From Octopus vulgaris (taxonomy: Eukaryota), in the NCBI GenBank assembly GCA_951406725.2, contig OX597830.1, positions 53,754,001 through 53,818,000 on the forward strand: a stretch of 64,000 nt of DNA. Reading direction: 5' to 3'. Below are positions 21,785-41,390 of the stretch, piece by piece. Position numbers and translations under genes: made by a program. The notes under the pieces were generated by a model. It had not been told where the DNA came from and made no database searches. It worked only from the letters and a program-made list of their open reading frames with translations. Each line of letters begins with the position of its first letter. The stretch's first letter is position 1.

Positions 21785-22220
21785 ATTGGCAGAATTGCTA
21801 GCGTGTCTGACAAAATGCTGAATGGCATTTCTTCCAGCTCTTTATGTTCTGAGTTCAAATTTTGCCATGGTCAACTCTGCCTTTCATTTTTTTAGGATCC
21901 TTAAAATAAGTACCAGTTAAATACTGGGATCAATGTAAATCAACTTGCCCTCTTCCCCCACTATATTTCAGAGCTGTGCCTGTAGTGGAAAGACTTAATA
22001 CCATTATTATAATGGTGGTGAGCTGGCAGAATGGTAAGCATATCGGACAAAATGCTTAATTACATTTCTTCCAGTTTTCATTCTGATTTCAAATTCTGCC
22101 AAGGTTGACTTAGCCTTTCATCTTTTTAGGATTGACAAAATAAGAACCAGTTGAATACTGCAGTTGATGTAATCAACTAGCCCTTTCTCACCAAATTTCA
22201 GGCCTTGTACCTAGTAAGGA
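21785..22220 (+). mobile_element. two Nin/Deu-domain SINE copies
   Basis: TGGCAGAAT..GAGTTCAAATT..GCCTTTCAT..AATAAGTACCAG. Confidence 0.7.
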
Positions 22221-22244
22221 TTATTATTGTTGTTAATTTTAGTT

Positions 22245-22543
22245 TGTTACAGTTCGAAAATTTCAGATATGAGGAATTATGTACATTATTTACATTTGAC
22301 GATATTTGTCCTCATCTTGTTTGTTGTTAACACAACGTTTCAGCTGATATACCCTCCAGCCTTCATCAGGTGTCTTGGGGAAATTTCGAACTTGGGTTCT
22401 CATTCCTAAGGTATTTTTCGATGTTGTTATTATTATTATTATTATTCAGGTCACTGCCTGGAATCGAACTCGGAATCTTGGGGTTAGTAGCCCGCGCTCT
22501 TAACCACTACGCCATATGCCCATGGGCATATGGCATAGTGGTT
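22245..22543 (-). mobile_element. tRNA-headed SINE-like element carrying a hammerhead ribozyme, with a 5' fold-back
   Basis: Head 22521-22449 GGGCATATGGCGTAGTGGTTAAG (A box)...GAGTTCGATTCC (B box), then (AAT)n spacer, HHR at 22374-22329 and AT-rich tail. The first ~20 nt of the head are duplicated in inverted orientation (palindrome 22502-22543). Confidence 0.85.
22329..22374 (-). ncRNA. minimal type I hammerhead ribozyme
   Basis: GACAC CUGAUGA A GGCUGG agggUAUA UCAGCU GAAA C GUU|GUGUU: stem I 5 bp, stem II 6 bp, palindromic ACGU stem III. Confidence 0.8.
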
Positions 22544-22564
22544 TATGTTGTTAATATTTTTATT

Positions 22565-22780
22565 AGGGCAGCAAACTGGTAGAATTGTTAGCATGCTGGG
22601 CATGATACTTAGCAGCAATTTCATCAGTCTTTCCGTTCTGAGTTCAAATTCTGCAAGGGTTGACTTTGCCTTTCATCCTTTTGGGGTTAATAAAATAAGT
22701 ACCAGTTGAACACTGGGGTCAATATAATTGACTTATCCTTTCTCCCCAAATTGCTGGCCTTGTGCCAAAATTTGAAATCA
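22565..22780 (+). mobile_element. Nin/Deu-domain SINE, complete (donor flank of the 26712-27137 duplication)
   Basis: GGGCAGCAAACTGGTAGAATTG...GCCTTTCATCC...TGCCAAAATTTGAAA. Confidence 0.75.
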
Positions 22781-23242
22781 ATATAAATATTGTTATTGTT
22801 GTTATATCAGTGAAATTGTTGTGGCCAGTGCCAGTGCCACATAACTGGCATCCTCTGAACGTTGGCCCTCACAGAGGCAGTGACAGTGGCTGAGACCTTT
22901 GGCGGTATACTGTGCTTAAGAAGACCTGTCAAGCCAAGTGAGATCATAGCTGTAGCCAATGCTGGTGCTACGTAACTGGCACCCATGCCGCATCCAGCCC
23001 TAGAAACCATGCCAAATCAGATTGGAACTTGGTGCAGCTTACCAGTTTTTAGGCAAGCCATCCAACCCATGCCAGCATGGAAAATGGATGTTAAATGATG
23101 ACGATGATGTTCTCATGGTGGTGATGGATTTTGAGAATCTTTAGAGTTTTGGTTAAAAATATCTTGAGGTATCTAGTTTCAACTGTAGATTCTGAGTTCA
23201 AAGCCTACTGGCACCAGCTCTACCTTTTATTTCTTGGAGAAG

Positions 23243-26036: not shown

Positions 26037-26356
26037 GTGTATGTGCGTGTGTGCTGAAAAAGTTTGGCATTGGCTCATATAGTCCAAGGTTTGTTTTCAC
26101 ACTGAGCATGCTATTGGCTTGCATCCTGTGTGACAGGTAACAGGTTGAACAATATGCCTTGAGTAATACCTGGTAGGGAGAAAACTGGGAGTAGTCCATC
26201 ATGTGTGCGCATGTGAATGTGTTTCCTTTGTCTTGACACATGCATACTGTTCATAAATGAAGCATCACCGTTTATACAAATGACATCATTTATTTGCAGT
26301 TCTCTGCACAAGCATGCCTATGCTTTTTGTTGCTCAATAAACTAGAGAAATATTAA

Positions 26357-27137
26357 CCTTATTTACATTATTTACATTTGACAGATATTTGTCCTCATCT
26401 TGTTTGTTGTTAACACAATGTTTTGGCTGATATACCCTCCAGCCTTCATTAGGTGTCTTGGGGAAATTTCGAAACCTGGGTTCTCATTCCTAAGGTATTT
26501 TTCAATGTTGTTCTTGTTATTATTATTATTATTGTTATTATTATTATATGGAATCGAACTTGGAATCTTGGGGTTAGTAGCTCGCGCTCTTAACTACTAC
26601 GCCATATGCCCATAGTGTAGTGGTTAAGAGCGCAGGCTACTAACCCCAAGATTCTGAGTTCGATTCCAGGGAGTGACCTGAATAATAACGATAATAATAA
26701 CATCGAAAAATAGGATGAAAGGCAAAGTCAACCCTTGCAGAATTTGAACTCAGAACGGAAAGACTGATGAAATGCTGCTAAGCATCATGCCCAGCATGCT
26801 AACAATTCTTCCAGTTTGCTGCCCTAATAAAAATATTAACAACAACATAAACCACTATGCCATATGCCCATGGGCATATGGCGTAGTGGTTAAGAGCGCG
26901 AGCTACTAACCCCAAGATTCCAAGTTCGAATCCAGGCAGTGACCTGAATAATAATAATAATAACAACAACAACATCGAAAAATACCTTAGGAATGAGAAC
27001 CCAGGTTGAAAATTTTCCCATGACACCTGATGAAGGCTGGAGGGTATATCAGCTGAAACGTTGTGTTAATAACAAACAAATATCCGTCAACTGTAAATAA
27101 TGAACATAATTCCTCATCTCTTAAATATAGAACTGAA
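26357..27137. mobile_element. compound HHR-SINE locus: - copy (26357-26611), inverted head (26612-26711), then inverted duplicate of 22245-22679 (26712-27137)
   Basis: Direct sequence comparison. The HHR is mutated in the - copy (CTAATGA, CAAAA) and intact in the + copy. Confidence 0.85.
27022..27067 (+). ncRNA. minimal type I hammerhead ribozyme
   Basis: GACAC CTGATGA AGGCTGG AGGGTATA TCAGCT GAAA C GTT|GTGTT; predicted cleavage after 27062. Confidence 0.8.
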
Positions 27138-27453
27138 ATAAGAACCTATTGCTTAGAAACAGGAAAAGGTTAATGGCAAGAAGAACATCTAGCCACCGAA
27201 AATTTTGCTTTGAGGAAATCTCATCTTACCCATGAAGACATAGAAATGTAGACATTAAAATGGTGATGATGAAGACTTTTAAATTTTGGTTGGTTGGTTG
27301 GCATGACTTACAAGTGATCAGTTTATATATATATATATATAGAAATTGAGGGATTGTAATGATGCTGGTTATGAAGATCTGTGTGTGTGCCTGACCCAGT
27401 GTGTGTGTGTGTGTGTGTATATATGTGCACACATACATACATGCACACCCTTC

Positions 27454-36540: not shown

Positions 36541-36940
36541 TTACATTATTTACAATTGACGGATATTTGCCCTCATCTTGTTTGTTGTGAACACAACATT
36601 TTGGCTGATATACCCTCCAGCCTTTATCAGGTGTCTTGGGCAAATTTCGAACCTGGGTTCTCATTCCTAAGGTATTTTTCGATGGTGTTGTTATCATTAT
36701 TATTATTCAGGTCACTGCCTGGAATCGAACCCGGAATCTTGGGGTTAATAGCACGGGCTATTAACCCCAAGATTCCGAGTTCGATTCCAGGCAGTGACCT
36801 GAATAATAATAATAATATCAAAAAGCTGATGAAGGCTGGAAAGTTGTGTAAACAACAAACAAGATGAGGACAAATATCCACCAATTGTAAATAATGTAAA
36901 TAATGTACATAACTCCTCATCCCTTAAATATACAACTGTA
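36541..36940. mobile_element. head-to-head inverted pair of HHR-SINE copies (36541-36752 -, 36755-36940 +)
   Basis: Same family as 22245-22543. Inversion centred in the tRNA head (GGGGTTAATAGC acgg GCTATTAACCCC). The HHR is mutated in one copy and deleted in the other. Confidence 0.85.
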
Positions 36941-40989: not shown

Positions 40990-41390
40990 TGAGTATGATC
41001 TGTTGGCATGTGAAAGGGAAGAGCTGAGTGTGATCTGTTAGCATGTGAAAGGGAAGAGTTGAGTGTGATCTGTTAGCATGTGAAAGGGAAGAGTTGAGTG
41101 TGAGCTGTTAGCATGTGAAAGGGAAGAGTTGAGTGTGAGCTGTTAGCATGTGAAAGGGAAGAGTTGAGTGTGATCTGTTAGCATGTGAAAGGGAAGAGTT
41201 GAGTGTGATCTGTTGGCATGTGAAAGGGAAGAGTTGAGTGTGATCTGTTGGCATGTGAAAGAGAAGAGTTGAGTGTGAGCTGTTGGCATGTGAAAAGGAA
41301 GAGCTGAGTGTGAGCTGTTGGCATGTGAAAGGGAAGAGTTGAGTGTGAGCTGTTGGCATGTGAAAGGGAAGAGTTGAGTGTGATCTGTTG
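40990..41390. repeat. 35-bp minisatellite, ~11.5 copies
   Basis: Unit GCATGTGAAAGGGAAGAGTTGAGTGTGATCTGTTA at 41006, 41041, 41076 ... 41356. Confidence 0.95.

Follow-up and report, generated by a model that had tools for sequence, protein, structure and literature searches.

A Penelope/Poseidon-type element of Octopus vulgaris with a tRNA-derived, hammerhead-bearing terminal repeat and SINE-like solo copies

The genome of Octopus vulgaris holds a Penelope element whose terminal repeat (pLTR) begins with a tRNA-derived head and which has shed SINE-like copies of this repeat, as seen in its anatomy, its coding partner, its insertion footprint, a sharp 5′ end, a loss of T runs from the reading frame and a deletion scar at the predicted ribozyme cut. 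The solo copies include a repeat at 22.3 kb of a 64,000-nt stretch (contig OX597830.1, positions 53,754,001 to 53,818,000 of assembly GCA_951406725.2; hereafter the window), which a sequence-only reading had taken for a tRNA-headed SINE that captured the terminal repeat and ribozyme of a Penelope element (PLE). Our main reading, to which we give a probability of about 0.62, is that the unit represents the pLTR of an autonomous Penelope/Poseidon element, now extinct, and that its solo copies likely come from the element's own RNA, likely started by Pol III at the head. It is from the sequence of the copies that we infer this use of Pol III, a single-RNA model of copying and cleavage by the ribozyme in vivo.

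Results

All the parts named by the sequence-only reading were found in their place on the minus strand by inspection of the window. We number the unit from the head along the minus strand, with position 1 at window 22520. The copy at 22250..22520 (minus strand, unit positions 1-271) is a solo pLTR of Penelope/Poseidon type, in the long-end form with a tail. It opens with a decayed tRNA-derived head (22448..22520), which, in alignments to eight genomic tRNAs, scores best with those for Arg, Ala and Thr, and which carries an A box (TGGCGTAGTGG, 22504..22514, unit positions 7-17) and a B box (GAGTTCGATTCC, 22460..22471, positions 50-61). There follow an (AAT)n/(AAC)n tract of widely varying length from copy to copy (about 22424..22446, positions 75-97) and an ATG, the candidate start codon (22401..22403, position 118), which opens a frame that, when the family majority is translated, passes ribozyme and tail and is continuous with the ORF of the element. 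The minimal type I hammerhead lies at 22329..22374 (positions 147-192) and consists of a 5-bp stem I, an extra A, a 6-bp stem II and a palindromic AACGUU that replaces stem III; we took the features of the descriptor from the accessible text of PMC4209133. Its predicted cut falls between 22334 and 22333, that is, after unit position 187. The AT-rich tail reaches about 22250, and its last part (22250..22275) is optional, lying between two classes of 3′ ends at positions ∼246 and ∼271, all of these features being on the minus strand.

The three loci reported earlier (22.3, 26.4-27.1 and 36.5-36.9 kb) are real and all turn out to be compound. The locus at 22.2-22.5 kb holds a single copy and a 20-nt fold-back of the start of its own head (22522..22543, plus strand), which builds a palindrome at 22502-22543; the target-site duplication is 10 bp long (left copy 22228..22237, plus strand; right copy 22546-22555), with 12 unrelated bases between the left duplication and the end of the element. 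The target of this insertion was an older, far more abundant tRNA-type SINE that fills the window (21787-22230, 22548-22800 and many other places), which also holds a 35-bp minisatellite (40990-41390, 11.5 copies, 96% matches). At 36546..36939 two copies lie head-to-head, one with a short and one with a long end, between the repeats of an 11-bp duplication, and the ribozymes of both are damaged. The compound insertion at 26356..27135 is made of an inverted copy with a broken ribozyme core (26356-26613, minus strand), a head-only piece (26612-26712, plus strand), ∼140 nt taken over from the sequence flanking the 22.5-kb copy and joined to the other pLTR piece at a short match (26709-26850), and a full copy with its fold-back and an intact core (26870-27135, plus strand). 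The captured ∼140 nt derive from the older SINE flanking the 22.5-kb copy, and altogether 26709-27141 is a 91% reverse copy of 22244-22682, lying within a new head-to-head insertion. The template may have been a read-through RNA of the solo copy, or else the new cDNA may have copied nearby DNA; as the flank of a solo copy was copied here, solo copies may also serve as templates, and, if read-through RNA was indeed used, they can be remobilised.

The unit is not a chance pattern, since in the 2.8-Gb genome of 227 contigs its exact 20-22-mers number 4,356 for the head, 6,729 for the ribozyme and 11,770 for the tail, versus 0 matches genome-wide for the reversed-pattern controls. We estimate roughly 30,000 pieces from the tail matches at a non-CpG divergence of ∼5%, bearing in mind that exact-pattern counts vary with mutability (tail and ribozyme differ 1.75-fold though only about a tenth of the pieces end between them). 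In a random sample of 10-kb tiles, 4 of 60 contained a piece, which is too few for statistics on ends. General models are silent on both parts: Rfam at E≤10 gave neither a hammerhead nor a tRNA match on 22200-22600, ARAGORN called zero tRNAs across the window, and the 46-nt ribozyme folds no better than its shuffles (z -1.07). We therefore base the tRNA call on the two boxes (A and B) at the 5′ end, their 43-nt spacing and the local similarity of the head to the eight genomic tRNAs (scores of 47-64, against a shuffle mean of about 28 and shuffle maxima of 39-55), and the ribozyme call on core nucleotides and stems. The earlier assignments of a tRNA-type head and of a Penelope-type minimal hammerhead, which fits the PLE descriptor, are upheld. 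The core nucleotides are intact at the 22.3-kb copy, where the first pair of stem II is a G-U through CpG decay (G-C in the family majority). The conservation of the core held up beyond this copy: the family majority has the conserved core, an extra base after position 9, G10.1-C11.1 and a palindromic 15.2-16.2, and, of 279 spanning copies, 151 have the full set of core bases. Dimers, which had been proposed as the cleaving form, are not preferred over two monomers by the energy model. The top Rfam tRNA matches include many genes resembling tRNA-Lys(TTT) whose acceptor and T arms vary (L171-L194), possibly heads of a Lys-derived SINE; the motif scan also returned two more, unrelated hammerhead-like motifs, one near a locus edge (L049/L098) and one on the minus strand (L034).

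The whole unit belongs to an autonomous element. At several loci, the common sequence before the head translates as the end of a Penelope endonuclease, and at one locus the tail continues into a Penelope N-terminus. Among the endonuclease-bearing loci, 29 of 30 continue into the head, 27 of them from position 11 or earlier, and locus L145 is near full-length, with an inverted pLTR, tail, ORF, pLTR and a 12-bp duplication. A further 20 long copies were collected as well. The layout is pLTR, a single ORF with RT and a GIY-YIG-type endonuclease, and again pLTR, and the first part of the ORF contains the ribozyme and the tail. Given the 29 loci, L145 and the continuity of the ORF, we conclude that the unit is a pLTR and that the tRNA head belongs to the autonomous element. 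A Penelope element with this tail was thus found in the same genome, as the sequence-only reading had suggested looking for, yet its idea of a SINE that captured a Penelope repeat is not supported in that form: the element itself carries the entire unit, head included, as its pLTR, where a SINE would share a mere 3′ tail with its partner, and the supposed SINE tail is coding sequence, the 3′ half of the unit being the start of the ORF in the translation of the family majority. The RT domain matches Pfam PF00078 (E 5.5e-10). As PF01541 gave no score for the endonuclease, its assignment leans on motifs: we named it by what we take to be a GIY-YIG-type motif in L145 and in the majority translation, and its position follows the layout common to metagenome relatives. 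The assignment to the Penelope/Poseidon type is a probable one, drawn from the absence of a Neptune-type cysteine linker and from an N-terminal motif.

This family appears extinct. No active intact copy was found among 124 scored protein matches to the C-terminal 321 aa, all of which are decayed or partial, and the copies show a non-CpG divergence of about 5%. The 30 endonuclease loci include no head-less sister family, although such a search favours close copies and distant sisters could escape it. Eight Poseidon-like relatives from metagenomes (34-45% identity) have ordinary T runs and gave no A/B-box match to a simple pattern in their short 3′ flanks. Neptune-type PLEs, which gave the top GIY-YIG matches, were rejected as the partner, since their hammerhead differs (U3-A8) and they do not resemble the unit, and served as controls. 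They are young (L092-L101, L037-L060), with intact 781-codon frames, insertion into (TA)n and the variant hammerhead ∼75 nt from the 3′ end, and their many identical endonuclease matches suggest recent activity.

The copies end sharply at the head. Exact 20-mer counts rise from 859 at about -200 and 929 at -31..-12 to 4,356 at +3..+24; as such counts depend on mutability, we inspected loci directly. Among the first 30 head matches on contig C1, 24 end within ∼7 nt of the head and six run upstream, three of which look like mutual duplicates; 3 of the 30 have no downstream tail, being interrupted by other repeats or lying beside an inverted partner. Out of 100 tail-anchored pieces, 25 end at -16..+3 and five extend past -300, the limit of the reference. 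Loose ends also accumulate 8 nt ahead of the head in contigs from four runs with four organism labels, and in three of these runs contigs bridge from the ORF end to the head by at least 31 nt. A start near -7 places the A box at about +14, as is usual for SINEs. Solo copies are about 4-5 times as numerous as ORF-bearing ones. At two loci (L212 and L155) the copy starts at the head and extends 350-900 nt into the ORF, so that RNAs with their 5′ end at the head included the ORF. We best read the solo copies as products of the element's own RNA that are SINE-like in look.

A sharp end may also arise in another way. The element could be a Pol II element in which the tRNA-like piece is an old, SINE-type passenger insert of the pLTR, transcribed from or near this piece or from further upstream, with reverse transcription stalling and folding back at a palindrome at the head start (GCCC-NN-GGGC). 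The D. virilis Penelope has a TATA-less internal promoter in its pLTR (PMC2377424), and palindromes are described at inverted junctions and at the 5′ ends of pLTRs (PMC3846280), each in the accessible text. Many head-end copies do carry a fold-back of 15-25 nt, the short palindrome could by itself stop the enzyme, and a tRNA head followed by (AAT)n resembles a simple SINE. Against this, the palindrome has a stem of just 4-5 bp in intact context, ends lacking a fold-back sit at the same place as those with one (L278, L304, L155, L212), this place is where a SINE RNA starts relative to its A box, and no independent head-plus-(AAT)n family was seen among the 30 head matches. We regard this Pol II explanation as unlikely and favour a Pol III start of the RNA at the head.

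The footprint of insertion was read from 60 loci on contig C1, chosen by position from the exact tail pattern. Of these, 31 are head-to-head, and a target duplication of at least 8 nt flanks 22 of the 31 (shifted control, 1 of 31). Half of 100 tail-anchored pieces (50) have their 3′ end at 230-252 and 47 at 267-282, and one long and one short end are paired in 29 of the 31 head-to-head loci. An inverted, 5′-truncated partner, a one-sided tail of 30-40 bp and a short target duplication are the marks of PLEs, so that the mobilisation by Penelope machinery proposed earlier is borne out by head-to-head arrangement, one-sided tails and duplications. We infer that the two classes of 3′ ends correspond to two start sites of reverse transcription, and their near-strict pairing suggests that the sites are used one per target strand. 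This footprint agrees with the described layout of PLEs (PMC8557442; accessible text of PMC3846280) and with the two internal start sites of reverse transcription shown in vitro for the Anolis element PAc (PMC11167929, accessible text). Two further observations concern junctions. Locus L091 (G000:C2, about 2,734,200-2,736,000) is a tandem array that lacks the head, with eight to nine ∼220-bp units from the 3′ part, which are joined at a match between the end of the tail and the base of the (AAT)n tract; its cut sites are damaged and its look is retrozyme-like. At L147, L152, L160 and L164, repeated template jumps lead to one ORF position ∼240 nt past the tail that resembles the ribozyme cut sequence, and in L147 and L164 the joined piece starts at or next to the predicted cut.

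The simplest model for these copies is a single RNA that begins at the head of a pLTR, crosses the ORF as far as the following pLTR and is primed internally at either junction. The upstream pLTR would start this RNA ∼7 nt before the head; the RNA would pass ribozyme and tail into the ORF and, without T runs, could reach the next pLTR. The protein would bind the pLTR-ORF junction and nick both target strands about 10-13 nt apart, as modelled on the Anolis PAc, and, again after PAc, reverse transcription would begin internally in the RNA at a pair of sites ∼25-34 nt apart, with one for each strand. Priming at the first junction would give a copy of 270 nt back to the RNA start, that is, a solo copy, and priming at the second would give ORF-bearing copies, the two cDNAs joining head-to-head.

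The sequence-only reading implied instead an independent Pol III SINE with master copies of its own, which borrows the Penelope protein and shares the head through recombination. The excess of solo copies, the 140 nt of solo-copy flank carried from 22.5 kb to the 26.4-27.1 kb locus and the head-less array of the 3′ part (L091) would fit such a SINE, as does the mobilisation in trans of host sequence between solo pLTRs in Adineta (PMC3846280, accessible text). It has to contend, however, with the head on nearly every endonuclease-bearing copy, with a head-less parent that did not turn up in our search, with the copies that start at the head and read into the ORF (L212, L155), and with the need of the PAc template for ORF sequence beyond the start sites (first 172 nt), which the solo copies lack (accessible text of PMC11167929). 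A distinct family of mini-elements (pLTR, short ORF, pLTR) was likewise rejected: the breakpoints of such pieces are scattered from ∼400 to 900 and do not make one family. An independent SINE is in our view quite improbable, and the element's own RNA remains the preferred source of the solo copies.

Which polymerase made this RNA is addressed by the T runs. The sense strand of the 2,646-nt majority unit contains zero T4 runs, versus 2.6 in codon shuffles (118 of 3000 as low, p about 0.04) and 3.3 expected under Neptune codon usage (70 of 3000 as low). Words with four T in five are also scarce (3 versus 14.3 expected, p about 0.001, 1500 shuffles), in a test that is one of ten statistics and was picked after the T4 result. 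Seven control ORFs (two Neptune-type and the five longest of the eight metagenome Poseidon-like ones) show no loss (p 0.19-0.98), the controls other than Neptune being more T-rich, and real copies carry 0.28 T4 per kb versus 3.4 in Neptune copies; the majority sequence itself was rebuilt from decayed copies, with cover down to 5. Since G4 runs are also absent, words with four A in five are mildly low (141 versus 165, p 0.008) and poly(A) signals are few (2 versus 5.3 expected, p 0.06), a general avoidance of stop signals is possible, and the low poly(A) signals would suit the Pol II explanation above; against it, the loss of T-rich words far exceeds that of other words. In RNA-seq of a related organism (three runs of one study), strand depths are equal, pLTR depth is far above ORF depth and molecule ends do not pile up, which fits passive read-through of many copies. 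Uncapped Pol III RNA makes a poor message, and the decay of the head, which neither Rfam nor ARAGORN called as a tRNA, also speaks against Pol III. We lean, from the place of the 5′ ends and the loss of T runs, towards Pol III as the polymerase that probably transcribed the template RNA; that it would transcribe the element from end to end is possible, with the odds slightly against.

The predicted ribozyme cut coincides with neither end of the unit, in agreement with PAc (accessible text of PMC11167929), but it is marked by a scar. Among about 310 covering pieces there are 43 small deletions starting at 184-187, 34 of them being one 3-nt event, whereas the more repetitive AAC tract next door has six 3-nt deletions. 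Without alignment, a 13-nt interval over the cut is shortened in 52 of 272 copies (including a few that lose the adjacent ACA instead) and in 18 of 111 of the position-picked set, against 4/200, 1/237 and 4/145 for control intervals (0.4-3%), and matched sites with 2-nt microhomology in the same ORF show one 3-nt deletion in 3,241. A scar-bearing subfamily was ruled out, as no diagnostic base is linked to the scar. The scar is found with either allele of other variable sites, and the two partners differ in it in 23 of 27 scar-carrying head-to-head pairs (overlapping loci may count a pair twice), which argues that it recurs per event. At the cut itself, 5′ ends show only a weak excess, with 11 of 281 pieces ending at 187-191, or some two times the background.

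Such deletions would follow if the hammerhead cut the RNA in some events and the enzyme jumped the break on a 2-3-nt match, which would remove 1-6 nt; the 3- and 5-nt deletions are those expected if the start of the 3′ product jumps onto the end of the 5′ product. Alternatively, and for this step alone, the site could be a hotspot of DNA slippage or of quasi-palindromes, with a ribozyme that is silent in vivo. The cut does lie in short GT/GTT repeats between the palindromes AACGTT and GTTAAC, about 25 Neptune copies judged by eye carry no such scar, and a U at position 17 makes a weaker cut site. Minimal hammerheads of PLEs cleave poorly in vitro (accessible text of PMC4209133), and in Anolis PAc insertion does not need cleavage and zero reads end at the cut, according to the accessible text of PMC11167929. 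A hotspot does not, however, sit well with the neighbouring tract (6 against 34 deletions), with the matched microhomology sites, with the rarity of the 2-nt deletion that would perfect the palindrome (2 events), nor with the equal age of copies with and without the scar (5.3% and 4.7% divergence). We consider a mere hotspot unlikely, and the scar likely records hammerhead cutting in the cell. The fullest version of our reading, an autonomous coding element that would be read end-to-end by Pol III, with a 2.3-kb frame purged of terminators, a SINE as by-product and copies that record cleavage in vivo, is put forward tentatively, as a whole that we think rather more apt to fail than to hold.

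Discussion

The closest relatives of this element are Penelope/Poseidon PLEs such as PAc (PMC11167929), Penelope of D. virilis (PMC2377424) and those of Adineta (PMC3846280), here and below as the accessible text of each paper describes them. It shares with them a single ORF with RT plus a C-terminal GIY-YIG-type endonuclease, free of a Neptune-type cysteine linker, as well as pLTRs, an inverted and truncated partner, a one-sided tail, duplications of ∼10 bp and a hammerhead that overlaps the start of the ORF, as ribozyme and ORF start do in PAc (PMC11167929). Unlike them, the octopus pLTR starts with a tRNA-derived A/B-box head at which most copies stop, the ORF is devoid of T runs, and a deletion scar marks the predicted ribozyme cut. 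The promoters of PLEs in these three papers are of Pol II type, including the TATA-less, LINE-type internal promoter of the D. virilis element (PMC2377424).

Pol III promoters and hammerheads have met before, which qualifies the earlier remark that no description of the combination was known. The Schistosoma repeats SM-alpha and Sj-alpha are short and dispersed and have a Pol III-type promoter followed by a type I hammerhead (accessible text of PMC6765202), so that a SINE-like repeat of this kind is in print; for a tRNA-headed pLTR of a PLE the literature that we searched gave no precedent. According to the same text, these repeats are non-coding and often tandem, with canonical hammerheads that free monomers and no autonomous partner named, unlike the octopus unit, which belongs to a coding element and has its predicted cut inside the copied unit. 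Non-LTR retrozymes (PMC7229834; bioRxiv 10.64898/2026.07.22.740005, accessible text of both) are likewise short type I hammerhead repeats from PLE pLTRs, and the one head-less tandem array with units of about 220 bp (L091) recalls them. They consist, however, of tandem units and circular RNAs, whereas the octopus family carries a tRNA head and is mostly single or head-to-head, and the cut sites of this one array are damaged; the words "SINE" and "Pol III" have 0 matches in the accessible text of PMC7229834.

A promoter derived from a small RNA inside a terminal repeat is known from the TRIMp3 elements Cassandra, Helenus and Ajax, and the RNA of Cassandra runs from one repeat to the next (PMC10886601, accessible text). 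These are non-autonomous LTR elements of 0.3-1.3 kb, while the octopus head sits in the repeat of the coding element itself; autonomous partners of TRIMp3 must use Pol II, according to the same text. A precedent in way of working, for an autonomous, ribozyme-bearing element whose RNA is no normal capped Pol II message, is R2 (accessible text of PMC6765202 and PMC2377424). R2 relies on a borrowed rDNA promoter and has its 5′ end set by an HDV-like ribozyme, whereas the octopus element would have an internal promoter and has its ribozyme within the ORF. The literature that we searched, mostly outside subscription papers, supplements and Dfam/Repbase, holds no PLE with a tRNA-derived pLTR, no autonomous element read by Pol III and no scars at ribozyme cut sites. 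A tRNA-headed Penelope family is not described in the accessible text of the octopus repeat papers PMC13282606 and PMC8967140, and the repeat libraries in the supplements of PMC13282606 or PMC8557442 may already hold it.

Pol III promoters are usually taken as a mark of non-coding passengers. If the reading is true, an element that is autonomous yet has a tRNA promoter and no terminators in its ORF would contradict the rule that autonomous partners must use Pol II (accessible text of PMC10886601), and would illustrate one way in which a SINE can arise from a coding element. The minimal hammerheads of Penelope elements are weak in vitro (PMC4209133) and dispensable for insertion, with no RNA ends at the site (PMC11167929, accessible text of both); a scar in roughly one copy in six would be a fossil read-out of their cutting in the cell that can be searched for in any genome. 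Thousands of copies in the octopus genome would be mislabelled as SINEs.
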